From Candidatus Versatilivorator sp. (lineage in GTDB: Bacteria; Acidobacteriota; Terriglobia; Versatilivoradales; Versatilivoraceae), in assembly GCA_965262635.1 (NCBI GenBank), contig OZ253547.1, forward strand, positions 3,445,514 to 3,509,513: a stretch of 64,000 nucleotides of DNA, given 5' to 3'. A model generated the notes under the pieces. The model searched no databases and was not told where the DNA came from. It saw nothing but the letters and a program-made list of their open reading frames with translations. A program made the translations under genes and the position numbers. Positions 6,434-64,000 of the stretch are shown here, in pieces. Position 1 is the first letter of the stretch; each line of letters starts with the position of its first letter.

Positions 6434-7555
6434 GTGGCGGAATCTCTGCGAGTCGGAATCATCGGAACCGGTCGGGCCGGCCGTTGCCAGGCCAGAGCCT
6501 TTTCACGCCTCTCCGGCGTCAGCGTGACCGCACTCTGGAACCGCACCCGCAGCAAGGCCGAGAGTTTGGCGGCGGCGCTGAAATCCCCGGGATTGCAAGT
6601 ATTCGACGACTGGCGCCGTCTGATCGACAAGAGCCCGGTCGACATCGTCAGCATCGCCACCGATCCTGTTCTCCGTCTGGAGCCCTTTGCCTACGCCCTC
6701 GCCAAACGGCGCCACGTTCTGGTGGAAAAGCCGCTTGCCTGGGGTTTGGTGGAAGCCGAGGCCATGGCGAAGGCCGCCCACCAGTCGGAGACGGTCACGG
6801 CCATCAGCTTCAACTGGCGCTATTCTCCGGCCTGTCTCACCCTGTGGCGCGCCCTCCGGGAGGGCCAGATCGGCAAACTGCTCGACCTCCAGACCGAGTG
6901 GCGACTCTGCTTCAGCCCCGGCCCAAGGCCCTGGACGGCCAACAGCGGCGTGCTCCGGGAGATGGGCAGCCACGAATTCGATCGGGCCTGCCACCTCACC
7001 GGCTGGCGATTCCGGCGCTTGGCCTGCAGGCTGAGGTCGGCCCCCTGCTCTCAGGATACGGCTCAATCCGGGCGGAAGGCGCCGGAGACTTTTGCTTCGG
7101 TGCTGGCGGAGATGTCGGATCGGGCCGTAGGCAACTTTCGCTTGGTGATCACGCCGGGTGAGCCGGAACGAAGTATCGTCCTCGGCGGGGTGGAGGGGAC
7201 GCTGACCTTGACTAGCCAATGGGTCACTGTGTCACGGGACCAGGACAGCCAACGCCGGATGAGGCTGTGCAACGAGCTGCAGGTGGTCAGGCAACGGCCC
7301 CAGGATAAAGATCCGGTCGTTCTGCAAGTGGCCGACTCGGACCGCCAACCTGCCGGGGTTCTTTCGGGGCAGCATACCTGGAACCGGCTGATTGCCGATT
7401 TCGTATCGGCCGTCCGCAATCAAGACCGGCGACACGCCAGCGTGCCTCACCTGCCCCATATCTCAGACGGCCTGGCGGCGCAGCGTTTGATCCAGGCCTG
7501 TGAGCTCTCCCACGCCGAAGGGCGGTGGATCGACCTGACCCCTCCAGGGCATTGA
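6434..7555 (+). CDS. Gfo/Idh/MocA-family NAD(P)-dependent oxidoreductase
   Basis: 373 aa; N-terminal Rossmann motif VGIIGTGRAG and EKP motif (HVLVEKPLA). Confidence 0.85.
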   Translation: MAESLRVGIIGTGRAGRCQARAFSRLSGVSVTALWNRTRSKAESLAAALKSPGLQVFDDWRRLIDKSPVDIVSIATDPVLRLEPFAYALAKRRHVLVEKPLAWGLVEAEAMAKAAHQSETVTAISFNWRYSPACLTLWRALREGQIGKLLDLQTEWRLCFSPGPRPWTANSGVLREMGSHEFDRACHLTGWRFRRLACRLRSAPCSQDTAQSGRKAPETFASVLAEMSDRAVGNFRLVITPGEPERSIVLGGVEGTLTLTSQWVTVSRDQDSQRRMRLCNELQVVRQRPQDKDPVVLQVADSDRQPAGVLSGQHTWNRLIADFVSAVRNQDRRHASVPHLPHISDGLAAQRLIQACELSHAEGRWIDLTPPGH

Positions 7556-7762
7556 CCTGACTGTGCCCGCGGGTAAGAACCCCGGAGGAGATCACCCGGG
7601 CAATCATTGCAAGCGGGCTGCTGGGCTCGTACGGCCACCGATGGGTCCGGTGCGGCCACCGTGGATCGCCAGCGGGATAGAGTGAGTTCCGGGGGCGGGT
7701 TTTGTTTGGATGCTTCCGGGCAGGTCTGCCCAACCTGAGACACCTGCATCTTATCGCACCCT

Positions 7763-10700
7763 ATGGGCAGAGGAGCCTCGCTGATGTGGTTTCGCTTGGC
7801 CTTGGCGCTTTCGTTGCTATTGCTCCTGCCGCGGGGGACTGCCGCGGAGGAGACACCGAGAGAATTCTTCGAGAAAAGAATCCGTCCGGTTTTGGCCACT
7901 CACTGCACCTCCTGCCATGGTCCGGCCAGACAGGAATCGGGGCTCCGCCTGGATACCCGATCCTCCATGCTGAAGGGCGGCAGGTCGGGGCCGGTGGTGA
8001 AGCCCGGCCAACCACTCCAAAGTCGACTCTACCAGGCCGTCACCTATCGGGACCCGCAGTTGAAGATGCCGCCGCCGGGTCGTCTTCCGCCAACGGTTAT
8101 TGAGGACCTCCGGATCTGGATTGAAGCGGGAGCTCCCTGGCCCGAGTCGGAGCCAGCCCCAATTCCCGGAACGTTTCCCGAAGCGTTCGACCTTGCAGCT
8201 CGCAAGCAGCGATACCCCTGGATCTGGGAGACGCCGCGAAGCCAACCGGCGCCCTCCACCCGTAACAAACACTGGCCCCGGGATCCCATCGACCGGTTTC
8301 TGCTGGTCAAACTGGAGCAAAAAGGCCTGCGCCCCGCCCCACCCGTGGACCGCCGGACCTGGCTGCGCCGGGTTTCCTTTGCCTTGACGGGCCTGCCTCC
8401 CACGCCCGAGGAGCTCCAACGGTTCGTCAACGACGAACGACCTGCAGCCCATGCCCGGCAGGTGGATCGACTTCTGGCCTCGCCCCGTTTCGGCGAACGC
8501 TGGGCCCGGCATTGGATGGACTTGGTGCACTACGCCGAATCGCGCGGTCATGAAACAGACTTTCTCATCGCCAATGCCTTCCACTATCGGGACTACCTCA
8601 TCCGGGCCTTCAACCAAGATATTCCCTACCCGCAACTGGTTGCAGAGCACCTCGCGGGCGACCTGCTGCCGGCTCCCCGGCTGGATCCGGCCACCGGCTC
8701 CAATGAATCGGTCCTTGCCACCGGATGGCCCTTCTTCGGTGAGGAGGAGGATTCCCCGGTTGACCTGCGCCAAGATGAAATCGAACGACTCGACAACCGA
8801 ATCGATGTGGTGAGCAAAACCTTTCTTGGATTGACGGTATCCTGCGCCCGCTGCCATGACCACAAGTTCGACGCCATTTCTCAGCGGGACTACTACGCAC
8901 TGTTCGGATTCCTGCTGAGCTCCAGCTACCGACAGGCGCGCTTTCAATCCATGGAGCACAACCGGCAGGTGGCTCTCGAGTTGCAGACGCTCGCCGGAGC
9001 GTACCGGTCCCGGATTGTCAAAGCGGTGGGGCGGGCCCAGAAGCCGTATTTGCAACAAACGGCAGCCTACCTCATGGCAGTCCGGAAACTGATCGAAGCC
9101 GAAAGGGAAACCGGATGCCGCTTCGACGACGGCGGTTCGCTGCTGGAGTCGGTAGCCTGGCCCAGGCGCCTCGAGGTGAAGCTCCTGAGGCATTGGGCCG
9201 AGGCCGTCAAGAGCGCCTTGGGAAACACGGCCGACCCGCTGCATCCCATTGCCCGGGTGGTTCAGGATTGGAACCCCAGCCATCCTCAAGGCGTTTCAGC
9301 CGTCCTGAGGAAGGTGTTCGATCCCTGGAGAAAGCAACCCAGCCTGAAGGAGGTCTTGCAGGCATCGGACGCTCGGATCATTCTGGATTACTCGAAGTTG
9401 GGCCCGCGCGATTGGCGGGTGGACGGACCCGGCTTTGGCAGCGCTCCTCGAAGGGTCGGGGAGGTGCGATTGGGAAGGCGTTTGACCTCTCCCGTCGCCC
9501 GTGTATTCCACCATGCGGGCGCCCACAAGGACCCGGTCTGGGACGTCCTGAAGCTGTTGCCGGGAACCGAACGGGATCCCGAGCGCCTCCGGAACTGGGT
9601 GCGTGCCGGCCGCTCCCTGCGCACGCCCACCTTTACCCTGAAAACAGGTAAACTCTACTATCTGACCAGGGGGACGGGCCGGGTCTACGCCACCGTCGAT
9701 TCCTACACCCTGCAGGAAGGCCCTCTCTACGGGGAGCTGGCTCGCCGCTGGAAAGACGTTTCTGAGCTGCGCTGGATCGAGCAGGACCTGACCGATCACC
9801 GCGGCCATCGGGTTCACCTGGAGTTCAGCCCCGAAGGATCGGATGACCTGGAGATCGCCATGGTCATCGAAGCGGCACGCAAGCCCAATCCCTATGCGCC
9901 TCCCAACCAGCTCCTGATCAGCAGACTGGCAACCTGCCGCTCCCTGCCTTCCCTGGCCCGGACCTATCAAGAGCTGTTGCTGGAAGCTTCCGAGCGCCTG
10001 GCTGGGGACTCCATTGCCGGATCGCCCCAGTCCGCTTCATTTGCCCGGCTGGCCGACTGGTTGGTTCAGCACCCGGAAATCAGCCTGGGTCCACCTTCGG
10101 AACGGAAAAAGCGATTTCAGGCGCTGGACCCATTCTTCTCCGAGCAAAGAGAACTGTTCAGCCGGATTCAAACCGTCTCCGCCACCGCCCCTGCCCTGCT
10201 GGACGGCAATGGAATCGACCAGCCCCTGCTGCATCGGGGACAGGTCCTTCAGCCGGGTCCCCGAGTCCCGCGGAGATTCCTGGAATCCGTCGCCGGACCG
10301 GAACCGCTGGCGTCCAGCGGTGGCAGCGGCCGCCTGCAACTGGCCGAAGCCCTGACCGCTCCCTCCAACCCATTGCTGGCCCGGGTGTGGGTGAACCGGG
10401 TCTGGCACCATCTCTTTGGGCGGGGTATCGTGGCCTCGGTGGATAACTTCGGCTGGTTGGGGGAACGTCCCAGCCACCCGGAACTGCTGGACCATCTCTC
10501 CCACTGGTTCAGGGTAGAAGCAAGCGGTTCCCTCAAACATTTGATTCGCAGAATCCTGCTGTCGCAATCCTATCGAATGTCCAGCAAGCCATCGGGCCGT
10601 CTGGCCGCCCGGCTCGACCCCGAAAACCGGCTGTTGCATCGCATGAACCTGCGGCGGCTGGAGGGAGAAAGCATCCGGGATGCCGTCTTGGCAATCTCGG

Positions 10701-56230: not shown

Positions 56231-59173
56231 TTGAACGACGGGATGAATCCAAAAGTGTCCCGGGTTTCTGAGCCACTCCCGACCCGGGTGTTGCCAGGAC
56301 GCCCTCCCCCATCCCAACCAGTTGCCAAGACATCATCCATGGCCTCACCCGTACCAGGCAATTCCGTTCCAACCCAATGGGTAAGCTCCACCCTCGACCG
56401 GCTCCCCCTGGAGGCCAAGCTCGGCCAACTCATCATGCCGGCTATGCGTGGGATTCACCTGAATGAAGCCAGTGCCGAATACAAGCAACTGAAGCATCAG
56501 ACACAGCAACTCGGCGTGGGCGGTTTCATTCTATTCGAGGGAGATATTTACGAGTCAGCCGTCCTCATCCACCGACTGCAGTCCCAGGCGCCGATTCCCT
56601 TGCTGATTGGATCCGACTTCGAGCGCGGAGCCGCCTTCCGCATTCGCCACACCCTCCCCCTGCCCTGGAACATGGCCGTGGGAGCCACCCGATCGGAGCA
56701 ATGGGCCTGCTGGCAGGGACGGGTCACCGCCCAGGAAGCCCGAAGCCTGGGGGTCAACTGGGTGTTTGCGCCGGTGGTGGATGTCAACAACAATCCGGCC
56801 AACCCGGTCATCAACATTCGATCCTACGGAGAGGACCCTCAAACAGTGGGCCGTCTGGGTGCGGCATTTGTCACGGGAGCCCAGCAGGCCGGGGTGCTGG
56901 CAACGGCCAAGCATTTTCCGGGTCACGGCGATACCGAGGTGGATTCCCATCTGTCTTTGCCGGTGATTTCCGTGCGGCGCCCACGGTTGGAACGGATCGA
57001 GTGGGTTCCCTATCGGGAGGTGATCGGGGCCGGTGTCATGGCGATCATGACGGCTCATGTAGCCATCCCGGCCTTGGAGAAAGACCCCACCCGACCGGCC
57101 TCGCTTTCGGCCGCGGTACTGGAACAGGCCTTGAGGAACGAACTGGGGTTTCGGGGCTTGATCGTAACGGACTCCATGAAGATGCGGGGACTGACCCGAG
57201 GATACTGGAGCGGCGAAGCGGCGGTTCAGGCTATTCAGGCCGGTGTCGACGTGCTCCTGGACCCACCCGATGCCCAGGTCATCTTTGGCGCACTGCTGGA
57301 GGCGGTGAAGAATGGCCGCCTTTCCGAGGCCCGCGTGGACCGATCGGTAGAGCGGGTCCTGCAAGCCAAGGCCTGGCTGGGCCTGAGCCGCAGGAAGCGG
57401 ATCGACTTCCGGCGCCTGGCTCGGACAATGAATGCTCCCGCAATCCACGCTCAAGCCCAACATTTGGCCGATGCTTCCGTCACTCTGGTGAGAGACGCCG
57501 TGTCTCGGGTTCCGGTGGATGTCCGTGGAATCCGCTCGGCCCATTTGATTGTCGTTTCCGCCAGCCCATCGCCGGGGGCTGCCGCCGAACTGGAAGGTCA
57601 ACTGAGGACTCGACTCGATGCTGTGACCGTGGATCGCCTCTCCTCTGAAGCTGCTCCCTCCCTGCTGAACCAGGCCAGATCCAGGGCCAGGAAGGCGGAT
57701 CTCTGTCTGGTGGCCCTGTTTGTTCCGCTTGTGACCGGGACCGGCCGCCTCGGACTGCCAACTCCTCTGGCGGATTGGTTGAAGGGGCTGGTCCGGGCCA
57801 ATCCCTCCGCGCTTTTGATTTCCCTGGGCGACCCCTACCGGATTCAGCAGCTTTCGTTCTTCCCAACCTACCTGTGCACCTACAGCCACGTAGCCACTTC
57901 CCAGAGGGCGGCAGTCAAGGCGCTCTTTGGAGAAATTCCGCTGGCAGGCGAGCTGCCGGTGTCCATTCCGGGCGTGGCCGCACGGGCTACCGGTCTCAAG
58001 CGGGAAGCGTTGCCGATGGTCCTGGGAAAACCCCGGCTGGTCGGAGCGAACCAGGCCCGACAGGGCATCCTGGTCCTTCGAAAACAGCTCCAGCAGATTG
58101 TCCGGCAATTCATCGCCCTTCAAGCCTTTCCGGGAGCCTCCTTGGCCGTGGGCTACCAGGACAACCTGCTGGTGCGTCAAGGCTACGGCAGGTTGGATTA
58201 CGGATCGACCAGTCCTTCGGCAAAGCCGCATACCATTTACGACCTGGCATCGCTCACCAAGGTGGTGTGCACCACCACCTTGGTCATGCAGGCCTGCGAG
58301 CGGGGGGATATAGACCTGGAAGACCCCCTCGGCCGCTACTTTCCGGAGTTCCGGGTGGGCGGAAAACACGAGGTCACACTCAAGCATCTGTTGACCCATT
58401 CCTCGGGACTTCCGGCACACTTTCCCCTTTACGCACACACCAGCGGAAAGGAACACATTCTTCGACGGATTCTGGAAATTCCCCTGGAGCACCGGCCGGG
58501 AAGTCGCAGCCTCTACAGCGACCTGGGCTTCATTCTGCTGGGGGGCGTCCTGGAAAGGGTTTGTGGACAGAGCCTCGACAACCTGGCTCGCGAGCGGATC
58601 TTCCAACCCCTGGGAATGCGTCGCACCGGCTTTCAACCCCCTTCCGCCTGGAGGCCCCGCATCGCTCCCACGGAAATCGACCCCTGGAGAAAACGCCTGC
58701 TCCGGGGTGAAGTTCATGATGAAAACGCCTATGCGATGGGAGGAGTGGCTCCCCACGCCGGACTGTTCGGCACAGCAACAGACCTGGGAGTCTTTTGTCA
58801 GACTCTCCTGAACGGCGGCGTCTACAATCATCGCCGAATCGTGAAGCAGAGCACGTTGGAAGCTTTCACCCGACGTCAGGCCCAGCCATCCGGCAGCACT
58901 CGAGCCCTCGGTTGGGACACCCCTTCGCCCAAGGGCTCCTCGGGTGACAAGCTGTCGAGGCAGTCCTATGGTCATACGGGATTTACCGGAACCTCCCTTT
59001 GGATCGATCCCCAGCGCCGGCTCTTCATCGTTTTCCTGACCAATCGGGTGCACCCCTCCCGGGAGAACGGCGCCATCCAGTCAGCCCGGCGTCAGGTGGC
59101 CGATACCGTGGCGGAGGCTGTGGATAAAATGGGGATGATTCAGACAGATACCGGACAGGGTGACGGGACATGA
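56231..59173 (+). CDS. bifunctional glycoside hydrolase family 3 (NagZ-like beta-N-acetylhexosaminidase) / beta-lactamase-family serine hydrolase
   Basis: 980 aa; GH3 N-terminal domain (KHFPGHGDT, catalytic D in TDSM); C-terminal class-C beta-lactamase/PBP motifs ASLTK (SxxK), YSD. The true start may be downstream of 56231. Confidence 0.85.
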   Translation: MNDGMNPKVSRVSEPLPTRVLPGRPPPSQPVAKTSSMASPVPGNSVPTQWVSSTLDRLPLEAKLGQLIMPAMRGIHLNEASAEYKQLKHQTQQLGVGGFILFEGDIYESAVLIHRLQSQAPIPLLIGSDFERGAAFRIRHTLPLPWNMAVGATRSEQWACWQGRVTAQEARSLGVNWVFAPVVDVNNNPANPVINIRSYGEDPQTVGRLGAAFVTGAQQAGVLATAKHFPGHGDTEVDSHLSLPVISVRRPRLERIEWVPYREVIGAGVMAIMTAHVAIPALEKDPTRPASLSAAVLEQALRNELGFRGLIVTDSMKMRGLTRGYWSGEAAVQAIQAGVDVLLDPPDAQVIFGALLEAVKNGRLSEARVDRSVERVLQAKAWLGLSRRKRIDFRRLARTMNAPAIHAQAQHLADASVTLVRDAVSRVPVDVRGIRSAHLIVVSASPSPGAAAELEGQLRTRLDAVTVDRLSSEAAPSLLNQARSRARKADLCLVALFVPLVTGTGRLGLPTPLADWLKGLVRANPSALLISLGDPYRIQQLSFFPTYLCTYSHVATSQRAAVKALFGEIPLAGELPVSIPGVAARATGLKREALPMVLGKPRLVGANQARQGILVLRKQLQQIVRQFIALQAFPGASLAVGYQDNLLVRQGYGRLDYGSTSPSAKPHTIYDLASLTKVVCTTTLVMQACERGDIDLEDPLGRYFPEFRVGGKHEVTLKHLLTHSSGLPAHFPLYAHTSGKEHILRRILEIPLEHRPGSRSLYSDLGFILLGGVLERVCGQSLDNLARERIFQPLGMRRTGFQPPSAWRPRIAPTEIDPWRKRLLRGEVHDENAYAMGGVAPHAGLFGTATDLGVFCQTLLNGGVYNHRRIVKQSTLEAFTRRQAQPSGSTRALGWDTPSPKGSSGDKLSRQSYGHTGFTGTSLWIDPQRRLFIVFLTNRVHPSRENGAIQSARRQVADTVAEAVDKMGMIQTDTGQGDGT

Positions 59174-60339
59174 AGCGACTTGCAGTGACCGCCGGCAGAG
59201 TGATGACTCCCGACCGGGTGATTCTGGATGGCGTGGTTCTGGTGGAAGGTCCCAAGATCCTGGAAGTCGGGAGCCGGCGGGCCGTGCGATTTTCCCGGGA
59301 CGAATTCCAGGTTGTGGGCCACTCCCAACAACTGCTGGCTCCAGGTTTCATCGATGTGCACACCCACGGTGCGATGGGGCGAGACGTGATGGAGGGAACG
59401 GACGAGGCGCTTGAGGTGATTTCCCGGTTCCTGGCCGCCCACGGCACCACATCCTTCCTGGCAACTACGGTCACGGCTTCTCCCATTGCGACCCTGCAAG
59501 CCGTGGAAGCCCTGGGCAGCCAGGTGGATCGACCCTTGCCGGGCGCCCGCATGCTGGGTCTTCACCTGGAAGGGCCATTCATCAATCCCGAAAAGCGGGG
59601 GGCCCATACCGCCAAGTACATTCGCCGTCCTTCTACGCTCATCTTTGACCAGTTGCTGGCCTGCTCCAGCCATCAGATCAAACTGATAACGGTGGCTCCG
59701 GAAGTCGAGGGTGGCCTGGAATTGATCCGGTTTGCCCGTGCCAAAGGGGTCGTCGTCTCTCTGGGCCATTCCAACGCCACCCTGGAAGAAACCATGGCAG
59801 CCATCGCTTTGGGCGCCGGCAACGCCACCCACACCTTCAATGCCATGAGACCCTTCAGCCATCGCGACCCGGGAATCCTTGGCGCCGTCCTGACCGCTCC
59901 GGAGATCTGGGCCGAGTTGATTGCCGATGGGGTACACGTTTCGCCCGCCGCCATCAAGCTTTGCATTCAGTGCAAGAGCGCCCGAAGGATCCTGTTGATC
60001 AGTGACGCCGTCAGCGCTACCGGCATGCCGGAGGGACAGTACCGGCTGTCCGATATCGAAATCACGCTTTCAGGAGGCATTTGTCGAACCCGGGAGGGGC
60101 AGCTGGCGGGCAGCACTCTGACTCAGGATCAAGCCCTGCGAAACATGGTCCGCTGGAGCCATCTGCCGCTGGAAGCCGTGCTCGGCATGCTTACCCGCAA
60201 TCCGGCCCAATCCCTGGGAATTGCCGAAAGCAAAGGAACCCTGGCAGAGGGCCGAGACGCCGACATGGTGCTTCTCGACCGGAACCTCAGGGTACACACC
60301 ACCATCATCCAAGGGGAGGTGAGCCACACCGTTGGATAA
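59170..60339 (+). CDS. nagA: N-acetylglucosamine-6-phosphate deacetylase
   Basis: 389 aa; APGFIDVHTHG metal-binding motif; 4-nt overlap with the upstream GH3 gene. Confidence 0.9.
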   Translation: MKRLAVTAGRVMTPDRVILDGVVLVEGPKILEVGSRRAVRFSRDEFQVVGHSQQLLAPGFIDVHTHGAMGRDVMEGTDEALEVISRFLAAHGTTSFLATTVTASPIATLQAVEALGSQVDRPLPGARMLGLHLEGPFINPEKRGAHTAKYIRRPSTLIFDQLLACSSHQIKLITVAPEVEGGLELIRFARAKGVVVSLGHSNATLEETMAAIALGAGNATHTFNAMRPFSHRDPGILGAVLTAPEIWAELIADGVHVSPAAIKLCIQCKSARRILLISDAVSATGMPEGQYRLSDIEITLSGGICRTREGQLAGSTLTQDQALRNMVRWSHLPLEAVLGMLTRNPAQSLGIAESKGTLAEGRDADMVLLDRNLRVHTTIIQGEVSHTVG

Positions 60340-61600
60340 GATCCTGGTCAAAGGAGGTACCGCGCTGAGGGGTCGGGTCACCGTCAGCGGCGCCAAGAAC
60401 GCGGCCCTGCCGGCCATGGCGGCATCCCTGCTGACCGACGAGCCCGTCAGACTGCGCAATTTGCCCAAGGTCCGCGACATTCAAACCACCGGTCGTCTCC
60501 TTCAGGAAATGGGCTGTCAGGTCGATTTGAAAGACCTGCAGGAGAGCCATGGCTGTGAATTGATTGCCCGACATCCGATCTCCTGCGTAGCCCCTTACGA
60601 GAGGGTCAAGACCATGCGTTCTTCGGTGCTGGTCCTGGGGCCTCTGCTGGCCCGCTTCGGCCGGGCCCGCGTGTCTCTGCCCGGAGGGTGCGCCATTGGA
60701 GCCCGTCCCATAGACCTCCACATCAAGGGGTTGAAGAAACTTGGCGCCAGCCTGACCATCCAGCATGGATACGTCGAGGCCAAGGCGCCCCGACTGAAGG
60801 GAGATAAGGTGGTCTTCGACCGGGTCACGGTCACCGGGACCGAAAACCTGATGATGGCGGCTTGCCTGGCGAAAGGCGAGACGATCCTGCACAACGCCGC
60901 CCGCGAACCCGAGGTGGCCGATCTGGCCGATCTGCTGCGCTCGATGGGCGCCCGGATCGAGGGAGACGGCAGCAGCACCATCCGAATTCAGGGCAGGCCG
61001 CAGTTGGGCGGGGCCGACCACACCATTATTCCCGACCGCATCGAGGCGGGGACCTTCATGGTGGCTGGAGCCATCACCGGCGGTGCCGTCGAGCTGGTCG
61101 ATTGTCGTCCCGACCATCTGACGGCCGTAATCGAGAAGCTGGAAGAAACCGGCATCACCATCGAACGCACCCGGCCGGACGCCTGCCGGGTCACGGCCCC
61201 CCGACGACTTCAGCCCAGGGATGTCACCACCATGGAGTACCCGGGGTTCGCTACGGATATGCAGGCCCAATACATGGCGCTGATGACCCAGGCTCACGGG
61301 GCTTCCATTATCACCGAGACCATCTTCGAGAGTCGTTTTTTGCATGCCAGCGAGCTGGTGCGGATGGGGGCCAGCATCAGGATCGAGGGCAACCGGGCCG
61401 TCATCTCAGGTCGCCGGGATCTGACGGGGGCCAAAGTGCTGGCCTCCGACCTGAGAGCCAGCGCCTCCCTGATCCTGGCAGGACTGGTTGCCAGAGGAGA
61501 AACTCTGGTTCACCGGGTATACCATCTGGACCGTGGCTATGAAGCCATCGAGGAAAAGTTGAGGAAACTGGGGGCAAGGATTCAGCGAATCACCGATTGA
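60332..61600 (+). CDS. murA: UDP-N-acetylglucosamine 1-carboxyvinyltransferase
   Basis: 422 aa; MDKILVKGGTALRGRVTVSGAKNAALP canonical MurA N-terminus and active-site Cys region. Confidence 0.95.
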   Translation: MDKILVKGGTALRGRVTVSGAKNAALPAMAASLLTDEPVRLRNLPKVRDIQTTGRLLQEMGCQVDLKDLQESHGCELIARHPISCVAPYERVKTMRSSVLVLGPLLARFGRARVSLPGGCAIGARPIDLHIKGLKKLGASLTIQHGYVEAKAPRLKGDKVVFDRVTVTGTENLMMAACLAKGETILHNAAREPEVADLADLLRSMGARIEGDGSSTIRIQGRPQLGGADHTIIPDRIEAGTFMVAGAITGGAVELVDCRPDHLTAVIEKLEETGITIERTRPDACRVTAPRRLQPRDVTTMEYPGFATDMQAQYMALMTQAHGASIITETIFESRFLHASELVRMGASIRIEGNRAVISGRRDLTGAKVLASDLRASASLILAGLVARGETLVHRVYHLDRGYEAIEEKLRKLGARIQRITD

Positions 61601-61652
61601 GACCCAATCGGCCCGTGCGGCTTGATCGGCTGGGGTATAATCCGAGGGTTTC

Positions 61653-62180
61653 TTGGGTGACTTGACTAAAAAGGGGCTTGGTACCATGCCAGATCGCGGA
61701 GATGGGATATTGTCGGCCTTGTCGGACTTCGTTAAGGAATACAACTGCCCGGCGTGTGGCTCGGCAATGAAGGTGGCGCCCGTTTGGGATTTCGTTCTCG
61801 GCAAGGGGTGGTCAGCCTGTGGGCACTGCTGGAAAACCTTCCGGCTCAAGGAAGGCGCCCAACTCGAAGGCTATAGCGTCAGGGTCGAGGACCTCGAGCC
61901 GGCTTCCCAGGAGGCGGACGCCAACAACGCCAGCAGCTTTGTGTGGAACGTCGTCAAACTGGAGAGCAGCCGGGTAGCGGCTGTGGACTTCTTCGTGAGC
62001 GTTGCCTTTACCGCATTTTTTGACGGCCTGGAGCGAAACTACCCGGTCCTCAACCAGCAGGACTTCGACGTCACCTGGCGGTACCTTTCCCAAGCTGGAG
62101 CCTTCGCCGTCGACAGTCTCGACACCCGCATCATCGCCGACGCCTTCGAAAAGGTGGAACGCTACAAACCGACGAGTTGA
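61653..62180 (+). CDS. hypothetical protein with CxxC...CxxC zinc-ribbon
   Basis: 175 aa; CPACGS...CGHC. Confidence 0.45.
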   Translation: MGDLTKKGLGTMPDRGDGILSALSDFVKEYNCPACGSAMKVAPVWDFVLGKGWSACGHCWKTFRLKEGAQLEGYSVRVEDLEPASQEADANNASSFVWNVVKLESSRVAAVDFFVSVAFTAFFDGLERNYPVLNQQDFDVTWRYLSQAGAFAVDSLDTRIIADAFEKVERYKPTS

Positions 62181-62557
62181 TCTCCAGTCCAACCGTCTGG
62201 CGAAAGCAAGGTGCCTGCCCTGAGAGGTGCCGCCAGGCTCGCTCAGCCAGGCTCGACCCATGCCACCGATCCTCTTCCGAAGTCGCCGAGTTTCCAGGAA
62301 AAGCCTGTGCCGGGTCGGCAGGATGCAAACAGAAAGAGACCGGCTTCATGACGGCTCGTGAACAAAGCGGCTGGCCGGCCCAAGAGAAGGGCGCTTTCTC
62401 GGCTCTCCCCAGGATCTCCGGCAACCGCAACCCTGTGAAGGGGCCAGCACTGCCCCGGGGACACCATCCATCCTTGTTTCACCCGCCACGAATCTCATAA
62501 CTCCTCCACCATCTCCAGCCGTTGCCCGGTTCCCGTACCTGCCGAGGCCCCATTCCG

Positions 62558-62776
62558 TCAGGGTCCAGTCTCGCTGTCATTACCCTCGGGTCTGGAGGTA
62601 GCCGCCGGCCAAACCCAAGCCGGAGGCAGCATCACCTTCGCGGTTGCCAACGGTTCCTATCGCCTCTCGGTAGCCGCTTCAGGCTTTGCGACCTTCCAGG
62701 GGGAACTGGCGCTCCATTCGGCCGAGACGCCAGACCTGGTGATGGAAATGCAGCTTGGCTCCCTTTTGAGCACCTG
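62558..62776 (+). pseudogene. remnant encoding a CarbopepD_reg-like domain (N-terminal fragment of a TonB-dependent receptor)
   Basis: ...PSGLEVAAGQTQAGGSITFAVANGSYRLSVAASGFATFQGELALHSAETPDLVMEMQ resembles the N-terminal domain of the receptor at 16140. No start, and it ends inside the 21-bp direct repeat. Confidence 0.45.
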
Positions 62777-62790
62777 AATTCCCTATTTGT

Positions 62791-63168
62791 CTACACGCTA
62801 ACCTTGAGGTTGCGCCGCAGCCATGGTTCCAGATTGTCAAAGCGGAACGTTCCTGCTTCGTACAGCCGGAGAATGAAGGCGTAGGCCTCTTCCGCCTCGG
62901 TAGTGAGTTGTGCATCGTTGATCGCCAGAAACGTGTAGGTGGCGGCAAAGGCCGTGCGCTTGTTGCCGTCGAGGAACGGATGGTTTTGGGAAAGACTCTC
63001 CCACAGCGCGGCGGCTTCCTCGACGAGATCGGCATAGTAGCCGGTTTGCGGTCGATAGAGTGCCGCCTCCAAAAGGCCCGCATCCCGGACGCCGTGCGAT
63101 CCTCCGTATCGCTCGATCTGATCGGCGTGAATGGCGAGAACTTCCGCCAGCGTGAGGTAGTCCGTCAT
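62791..63168 (-). CDS. doc: Doc (death-on-curing) Fic-fold toxin
   Basis: 125 aa; HPFLDGNKRTA Doc/Fic motif. Confidence 0.8.
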   Translation of the reverse strand: MTDYLTLAEVLAIHADQIERYGGSHGVRDAGLLEAALYRPQTGYYADLVEEAAALWESLSQNHPFLDGNKRTAFAATYTFLAINDAQLTTEAEEAYAFILRLYEAGTFRFDNLEPWLRRNLKVSV

Positions 63169-63392
63169 TTCGCGAGCTTCTTGTAGAGCTCGTCGTACTT
63201 GTCATGGCTGGCGAGATAGGCGGCCATGACGTGCGGCCGTGGTCGGGCCTGTTTGCGCTTCTCGATCAGGTCGGTCAGCGCCTCGTCCACGAGCGCTTGC
63301 AGCAGGCGGCCCTCCTTCTCCGCGATGGCGCGGATAGTGGCTAGAATCTCAGCGTTGACCTGGGTGGCGAATTTCTCACGAGTCTGGGGCAT
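63165..63392 (-). CDS. Phd/RHH-type antitoxin partner of Doc
   Basis: About 75 aa from MPQTREKF; 4-nt overlap with doc; small acidic C-terminus. Confidence 0.6.
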   Translation of the reverse strand: MPQTREKFATQVNAEILATIRAIAEKEGRLLQALVDEALTDLIEKRKQARPRPHVMAAYLASHDKYDELYKKLAK

Positions 63393-63716
63393 GGGACATC
63401 CTTCCTTAACGAACCCCAGAGTACCATGATAAATCATGATATATCAAGATATGCGTCTTCCTGCCTGGACTCCATCAGGAATAAACTCTTTGCGGGTCTA
63501 TTTTCGGTACACTCCCAGGAGTATCCGGATCAGATTGCGCGCTGCCCTGCAGTTTGCACCTTTTCGGGGCCGTCTCCGGGAGGGAAACGGGACCGTCTCT
63601 GGGAGCCCGTCAGGCAGAGTAGGAGACATCGAGGTCCATTAACGGTTGGGTATAACTGTAATTCCATCGACCCGAAACTTGGTGCTTGTTTCCTTATCTG
63701 CTTCATTTCCGGTTGA

Positions 63717-63908
63717 TTACCGTATAGAACGAAAATTACTCCATACATGACACTAGCTGTACTCACGAGGCGAGTGCAGCTAGCGGGGATAGAAAACCTG
63801 GGCGACAAGTTCTATTTTGAGCACCTGAATTCCCTGAATCCCTTCACCCGTGAGAGAATTTCGGAGTTGGGCCGTAATGTCTTTGTGGGTGTGACCAAGC
63901 ATTGGTAA
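63717..63908 (+). pseudogene. C-terminal remnant of a TonB-dependent receptor barrel
   Basis: ...IENLGDKFYFEHLNSLNPFTRERISELGRNVFVGVTKHW* has the xNLxDKxYxxHLS...GRNxxVGVxxxW C-terminal signature ending in an aromatic residue. No upstream barrel. Confidence 0.5.
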
Positions 63909-64000
63909 AACCGAGGGGCAGGGGCTTTTTGGTTGGCGCCCCCCGGGATGCCGTGAGGTTGCGATGGTTCGGCCAGGAATTCTCTCAGGTCTATGGATTT

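Follow-up and report, generated by a model that had tools for sequence, protein, structure and literature searches.

How an exact 21-bp direct repeat came to lie on either side of a toxin-antitoxin (TA) cassette, between two pieces of a gene for a TonB-dependent receptor (TBDR), is the question raised by the end of the DNA analysed here, a stretch of 64,000 nucleotides referred to as the window. A MurA gene 1 kb upstream of the feature places the window in Terriglobia (Acidobacteriota). The repeat, TTTTGAGCACCTGAATTCCCT, has two exact occurrences in the 64-kb window, copy 1 at 62764-62784 and copy 2 at 63815-63835, with a spacing of 1051 bp; the chance expectation for matches to this 21-mer in the window is approximately 0.01, even with 3 mismatches permitted. 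A preliminary description of the locus had recognised the repeat as exact and real, with copy 1 placed one base too early (62763-62783) and the spacing given as 1052 bp, and had attributed the arrangement to a mobile TA cassette that entered a receptor gene by target duplication or site-specific recombination. Along the window, the elements involved are as follows.

62195-62554, plus strand: decayed non-coding remnant from upstream of the first receptor gene (TBDR-A), with 73% ungapped identity of 62215-62554 to the upstream spacer of a related locus (L098, 7295-7634)

62558-62763, plus strand: N-terminal remnant of TBDR-A, comprising the CarboxypepD_reg domain without its first third (codons ~40-109)

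62764-62784, plus strand: copy 1 of the 21-mer, a non-native duplicate of the receptor's YFEHLNSL-coding sequence in another frame (LLST followed by a stop)

62785-63450, minus strand: conserved Doc/antitoxin cassette unit of roughly 666 bp, from the promoter/operator to 5-6 nt beyond the doc stop codon

62791-63168, minus strand: doc toxin gene, 125 aa, Pfam PF02661 (Fic/DOC) and TIGR01550

63165-63392, minus strand: antitoxin gene, 75 aa, whose stop overlaps the doc start (ATGA)

63422-63451, no strand assigned: palindromic, repeated CATGAT-type motif upstream of the antitoxin gene, formed by the overlapping inverted repeats I1 and I18 and conserved in five other cassette loci (L093-L097)

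63453-63781, no strand assigned: 329-bp stretch of lower G+C (GC 0.44-0.58), present in TA-haplotype strains only

63782-63908, plus strand: C-terminal remnant of TBDR-A, 41 codons ending in ...AGIENLGDKFYFEHLNSLNPFTRERISELGRNVFVGVTKHW and a stop, which carries the native copy 2

63964-64000, plus strand: start of TBDR-B, an intact paralogous receptor downstream (789 aa in relatives) that extends past the window end

The first step is to establish what the receptor gene looked like before it was broken. In the nearest reference genome (L001), MurA is 90% identical and synteny with the window ends at 62181, and among 80 MurA-anchored loci from reference genomes there was no relative of either receptor remnant or of the TA genes. 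The informative relatives are ENA assemblies, which were reached via protein searches. A query in which the N-terminal and C-terminal fragments were joined returned only short proteins matching the C-terminal fragment, and an exhaustive search with one such receptor C-terminus (P0002) led to a related Terriglobia genome (L098) that has an intact 778-aa receptor (P0128) at the syntenic locus. The gene order there is NagZ/beta-lactamase, NagA, MurA, a small gene, a spacer of ~1 kb, TBDR-A (778 aa), 53 bp, and TBDR-B (789 aa); the 1-kb spacer that precedes the intact receptor showed neither a riboswitch nor a gene. Both remnants in the window map to P0128, so that they come from one receptor gene that has lost most of its barrel, just as the preliminary description had proposed: the window keeps codons 40-109 and 738-778, and codons 110-737 (~1.9 kb) have been replaced.

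The N-terminal remnant matches Pfam PF13620 (E=9.3e-5) over profile positions 28-81 of 82 and is, at the amino-acid level, 52% identical to residues 31-109 of P0128 (E=7e-20). Its frame was correctly said to end inside copy 1, where a TGA stop is present, and spans 62559-62777, one base later than first reported (62558-62776); it contains neither an in-frame start codon nor a signal peptide. The C-terminal remnant shows 96-97% identity to the corresponding DNA of sister strains (L081-L088) from 63782 on and 82-86% amino-acid identity to four receptor proteins (P0001-P0004); it has no Pfam match, and its end (...GRNVFVGVTKHW and the stop) aligns to the ends of P0128 and P0002, with the last strand and the terminal aromatic residue. 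Copy 2 does encode YFEHLNSL in this C-terminus, for which a range of 63717-63908 had been given; native homology restarts sharply at 63782 and not at 63717, so that the retained C-terminal piece amounts to 41 codons (residues 738-778). The next gene is close behind, as window 63782-64000 aligns to positions 8534-8752 of L081, where the 789-aa gene starts at 8716; no sigma-70-like promoter able to drive this downstream receptor was found. Acidobacterial receptors of the P0128 type combine PF13620, PF07715, and PF00593, and the remnants align to their N-terminal domain and last 41 residues. Because the start codon, the signal peptide, the plug, and essentially the whole barrel are missing, TBDR-A in the window's lineage is, judged from its coding sequence, a dead gene.

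Alignment with the intact locus locates both breakpoints. L098 4793-6977 and window 60000-62183 are 88% identical, and L098 8118-8326 (TBDR-A codons 40-109) and window 62558-62764 share 74% nucleotide identity; the 3' end of TBDR-A is then matched by window 63761/63782-63985. Three segments of L098 are missing from the window (6978-7294, 7635-8117, and 8327-~10210), which represent several independent deletions, and the second of them, without counterpart in the window, includes the start codon and signal peptide. In comparison with the sister strains L081-L087, the left breakpoint lies at 62194/62195, 14 bp past the stop of a 175-aa gene. In the sister strains that contain P0002, identity to the window is ~98% as far as 62194 and ~96% where it resumes at 63782; between the equivalents of these two positions, these strains have a gene of 98 aa, a fragment of a DDE_3 transposase, and P0002 itself, a 219-aa receptor C-terminus behind the DDE_3 fragment and thus an independently truncated version of the same receptor. 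In another lineage, a receptor with an internal deletion was observed (P0004). The closest Doc proteins (96-98% identity) belong to four strains (L089-L092) that have the window's arrangement and DNA 98-99% identical to it. Three haplotypes of the locus can be distinguished, namely intact (L098), IS-disrupted (L081-L088), and TA (the window and L089-L092), and the latter two occur together in one sample (L086 and L089, both from ERZ25068966). This locus is a hot spot of decay and insertion. No sign of local import by homologous recombination was found: the TA and IS haplotypes have diverged to a similar degree on the two sides, and there is no gradient.

The second step concerns the DNA that took the place of the receptor's core. 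The replaced interval is 1018 bp long; it begins with the 21 bp of copy 1, continues with the cassette, and ends with a stretch of 329 bp, and doc and the antitoxin gene are the only recognisable genes in this block. Doc matches PF02661 with 64.5 bits (E=1.6e-17, cutoff 24) and TIGR01550 with 69.9 bits (cutoff 38.65), the catalytic motif HxFx(D/N)(A/G)NKR is intact as HPFLDGNKR at residues 63-71, and the nearest solved structures are those of phage P1 Doc (3k33, E=6e-9; also 3dd7 and 3kh2); an exact look-up of the Doc protein gave no match. By homology, Doc would be a Fic-fold kinase that blocks translation via EF-Tu phosphorylation. The 75-aa antitoxin is probably a ribbon-helix-helix protein, as suggested by a weak, sub-cutoff Antitox_RHH match (2.6e-4); there was no match in NCBIfam, no significant match in PDB (the best being Arc, E=0.41), and no Phd/YefM signal. 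The palindromic motif at 63422-63451 is likely to be the operator and marks the conserved end of the cassette, and the predicted antitoxin should neutralise Doc and repress the operon at this site. With such a predicted action, the block would be hard to lose once acquired. The system resembles Phd/Doc of phage P1 in its Fic-fold Doc domain and HPFLDGNKR motif, in the small antitoxin gene directly upstream that overlaps the toxin start, and in the operator-like palindrome upstream of both, but it differs in its antitoxin, which gives no Phd/YefM signal, and in its setting: P1 Phd/Doc is located on a plasmid prophage, whereas the pair described here is chromosomal, lies in a pseudogene, and is known from sequence.

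The cassette is foreign to the receptor locus. Both genes are kept as a pair in L089-L097, and the segment 62786-63448/63452 has 86-89% nucleotide identity to cassettes in Bryobacterales and other genomes (L093-L097) and 70-89% to those of unrelated contexts, more than 80 in number; relatives on alphaproteobacterial plasmids are 68-75% identical over about 75-95% of the cassette. In approximately 85 metagenomic loci, homology never extended past 62783-63457. The view that the TA cassette is mobile was therefore well founded, and these comparisons indicate that it is a horizontally mobile, self-contained type II toxin-antitoxin module, recently acquired by this lineage. The uniform ends of the cassette can be explained by selection that keeps only the addictive functional unit, so that they are no proof by themselves of a dedicated insertion mechanism. 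Among strains of the TA haplotype, doc differs synonymously at 4 codons and non-synonymously at 5, which could reflect relaxed constraint on the toxin. The 329-bp stretch beyond the cassette was found only in L089-L091. It has no match in Rfam or among plasmids, forms neither a significant fold nor an attC-like hairpin (z=-1.1 relative to shuffles), and shares 12-mers with nearby DNA at background level; it is probably donor flank that was brought in with the cassette.

Against this map, the origin of the repeat can be considered. A short exact direct repeat on either side of a mobile-looking TA cassette is reminiscent of transposon target-site duplications, of att integration, and of TA cassettes in integrons, and the two 21-mers might accordingly be read as a transposase target-site duplication or as the att core of site-specific cassette integration. 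The resemblance extends to copy 1, which directly abuts the cassette end, and to the haplotypes without the cassette, which have a single copy of the 21-mer. The geometry of such an event nevertheless fails, because native DNA surrounds copy 2: immediately to its left are 33 bp of receptor sequence (63782-63814), and the conserved end of the cassette is ~365 bp away. Contrary to the earlier statement, the repeats enclose more than the TA pair, since 329 bp of unrelated DNA and these 33 bp of native receptor also lie between ~63450 and copy 2. Copy 1 is misplaced as well, in that its left neighbour is receptor codon 109 rather than the sequence that natively precedes the 21-mer (codon ~748), which in the receptor reads ...GACAAGTTCTA. 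The block encodes neither a transposase nor an integrase, and none lies within ±6 kb of it in L089 and L090; terminal inverted repeats and an attC-like fold are likewise lacking.

Other insertions of the same cassette point in the same direction. The 21-mer is absent from all other cassette contexts, where no comparable repeat exists: across 55 distinct contexts, no flanking direct repeat exceeded 15 nt, and the longest in each measured 7-15 nt, with a mode of 8 (two apparent values of 600 nt in this survey were indexing artefacts and were set aside). A literature search on TA cassettes with flanking direct repeats yielded no specific report. Taken with the wrong geometry, these observations make target-site duplication or att integration very improbable, and this part of the preliminary description was abandoned. 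Its assumption that the 21-mer is not a common repeat was borne out, since the sequence occurs twice in the window and has 0 exact occurrences in 185,579 reference genomes or in the metagenome collection.

A base variant connects the two copies to each other. Position 7 of the 21-mer is G in both copies of the TA haplotype and A (GAA) in L081-L088 and L098; because the G is common to both copies and relatives have A, copy 1 is a copy of the lineage's own copy 2. Two strains (L089 and L090) have both 21-mers with the same spacing as the window, and the sequences of L091 and L092 stop before copy 2. Both copies are exact in the TA-haplotype strains as far as these sequences reach, which might suggest that the second copy was retained because it is functional, such as a site of protein binding or regulation; alternatively, it might have arisen by chance. 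Conservation of 21 bp is uninformative in this case, because the strains concerned are 98.5-99% identical. Furthermore, copy 1 is surrounded by dead DNA, with a pseudogene fragment on one side and the doc stop codon on the other, neither the reference genomes nor the metagenomes mentioned above contain the 21-mer, and the low chance expectation given at the outset speaks against coincidence, so that a functional or accidental second copy is scarcely credible, the least probable of the readings considered. A resemblance of the 21-mer to the native sequence at the left breakpoint in L098 (TGGCCACC-GAAATC) was noticed and dropped, as 20% of random 30-nt windows score equally.

A further feature is the sequence at the ends of copy 1. 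In 4 of the 5 TA-haplotype strains, the junction reads GGC[TCCCTTTT]GAGCACCTGAAT[TCCCTTTT]TGTCTAC. The same 8 nt, TCCCTTTT, thus straddle both ends of copy 1 in L089-L092; the window differs by an A at 62785, which is derived, the base after copy 1 being T in the other 4 of the 5 strains. A straddling repeat of at least 8 nt is rarely obtained by chance (P≈4.3e-4 from 200,000 simulated placements of random window 21-mers at random window positions), a value to be read with the caveat that the TCCCTTTT microhomology takes in a low-complexity T-run. TCC-CT corresponds to the Ser-Leu codons that end the N-terminal domain of the intact protein, and the cassette end TTTTGTCTAC is shared with other occurrences of the cassette. 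Because this 8-nt microhomology straddles copy 1, the 21-mer is best read as a microhomology-templated patch.

On this basis, the following course of events can be proposed. The ancestral locus consisted of MurA, a small zinc-ribbon gene, a spacer of ~1 kb, TBDR-A (778 aa), and TBDR-B (789 aa). In the window's lineage, TBDR-A has lost its start codon and signal peptide, and codons 110-737 (~1.9 kb) have been exchanged for ~1 kb of foreign DNA, that is, a self-contained Doc/antitoxin operon together with 329 bp of probable donor flank. The cassette probably entered by illegitimate (non-homologous) recombination, with neither a transposase nor an integrase involved, and a precursor junction between the N-terminal remnant and the cassette would have read ...GGCTCCCT, directly followed by TTTTGTCTAC... 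At this junction, a DNA end or nascent strand could have switched to the 3' end of the receptor ~1 kb downstream via TTTT(G) microhomology, copied approximately 17-20 nt (GAGCACCTGAATTCCCT) from the native site, and returned via TCCCT microhomology. The patch might have formed during the recombination that brought the cassette, or after it. An allele in which the N-terminal remnant is joined to the cassette without the 21-mer (...GGCTCCCTTTTTGTCTAC...) was not found among the loci retrieved, a set in which species sampling is small, and because no such precursor is at hand, the template switch is reconstructed rather than observed.

Several characteristics of the patch agree with microhomology-mediated templated insertions, which are ascribed to template switching or alternative end joining. 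The insert is likewise identical to sequence ~1 kb away on the same molecule, each end has 4-5 nt of microhomology, and the insert is found exactly at a junction with unrelated DNA; in this case the reconstruction draws on a single haplotype. Such templated patches have been amply documented for end joining in eukaryotes, and less so in bacteria. Considered as a whole, the proposal that TBDR-A died, that the cassette was captured by illegitimate recombination, and that the 21-mer is a microhomology-templated patch is somewhat more probable than not in our judgement.

The main competitor assumes that a longer duplication was later trimmed. Entry of the block into the 3' end of the receptor would have duplicated 54 bp or more of the target (63782-63835), either through a Campbell-type single crossover of a circle with a receptor segment or through fill-in of widely staggered nicks, and a subsequent deletion, starting where the CarboxypepD_reg domain ends and reaching into the left duplicate, would have spared 21 bp of the latter. 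Such a history accounts for the native sequence to the left of copy 2, is compatible with the shared G variant, and fits a locus that shows several independent deletions relative to L098. It requires, however, at least two events and a deletion endpoint that, within ~1.9 kb, happens to fall in a target of ~54 bp; it gives no reason to expect the 8-nt microhomology at both ends of copy 1 (P≈4e-4); it leaves a circle bearing the cassette and a receptor segment unexplained; and 0 intermediate haplotypes were seen among 13 sister-strain loci (L081-L092). Trimming of a longer duplication is therefore considered unlikely, and the templated patch remains the preferred reading.

The 21-bp repeat is thus most likely a repair scar and not the footprint of a mobile element, and for this reason the locus can be regarded as a product of ordinary genome erosion combined with horizontal acquisition of a TA module. 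For annotation, this means that the two small receptor-like open reading frames are pseudogene remnants and that the repeat should not be marked as a mobile-element boundary. The microhomology-flanked patch is a tidy case of illegitimate-recombination scarring in an uncultured soil Acidobacterium, only modestly unusual as an element, and taken alone it leaves general understanding unchanged. A broader, rather doubtful possibility is that the ~0.67-kb cassette, which has essentially the same ends in more than 80 unrelated contexts and is never accompanied by a recombinase, spreads by capture at chromosome breaks via end joining or template switching. If so, the 21-mer would be a rare preserved footprint of this process and a clue to how recombinase-less TA cassettes insert into genomes.

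In the vicinity of the decayed receptor gene TBDR-A, which carries the Doc toxin and antitoxin cassette, two neighbouring genes could be delineated in the window:

56231-59173: 980-aa ORF combining a NagZ-like domain of glycoside hydrolase family 3 with a beta-lactamase-family domain in one fusion
61653-62180: conserved small protein gene (156-175 aa) with weak zinc-ribbon matches and without family assignment

Counterparts of the fusion protein (902-944 aa) are kept in all relatives, where they adjoin nagA and murA. The small zinc-ribbon-like gene always lies directly downstream of murA in the lineage of the window, and its product shows 89% amino-acid identity in L001, the closest reference genome by MurA.

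Compared with the four strains sharing this toxin-antitoxin haplotype (L089-L092), doc has four synonymous and five non-synonymous codon differences, whereas the 75-aa antitoxin has only synonymous ones (1-2 codons), the two genes together covering 62791-63392. With counts this small, the pattern is at most a possible sign that constraint on the toxin has relaxed. Two further features were found to the right of the cassette:

63565-63605: near-tandem repeat of 18 nt (CGGGGCCGTCTCCGGGAG / CGGGACCGTCTCTGGGAG) with 23-nt spacing
63753-63783: hairpin with a 12-bp stem (CTAGCTGTACTC / GAGTGCAGCTAG) and a 7-nt loop

The repeat falls within the 329-bp stretch of unknown origin, and the hairpin spans the right junction between this foreign stretch and native receptor DNA.

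In a separate lineage, a 4307-bp ENA contig encodes an internally deleted receptor orthologue of 131 aa (P0004), in which a signal peptide (MRLPYLPLLSVLSL) resembling that of the intact receptor P0128 is followed by an out-of-frame stretch and then by the final ~70 receptor residues. This deletion suggests that independent decay of the receptor has recurred.

Sister strains possess an alternative, IS-type haplotype, and in two contigs the left flank is swapped:

L081 6086-8533 and matching parts of L082-L088: alternative haplotype, comprising a 98-aa gene on the minus strand, part of a DDE_3 transposase (156 aa), and a 219-aa remnant of the C-terminal end of a receptor
L086 1-7060 and L088 1-1500: swapped left flank

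A ~320-bp segment (L081 ~6915-7233) occurs in one to three copies depending on the strain, with ~440-bp spacing and three copies in L084. In both L086 and L088, the IS-type right half (the DDE_3 fragment, the 219-aa remnant, and the 789-aa downstream paralogue TBDR-B) abuts a wholly different left flank that replaces the MurA neighbourhood and, in L086, includes a phage-type integrase. Since the IS-type right half is thus joined to something other than the MurA neighbourhood, the region of the receptor locus is a rearrangement hot spot.
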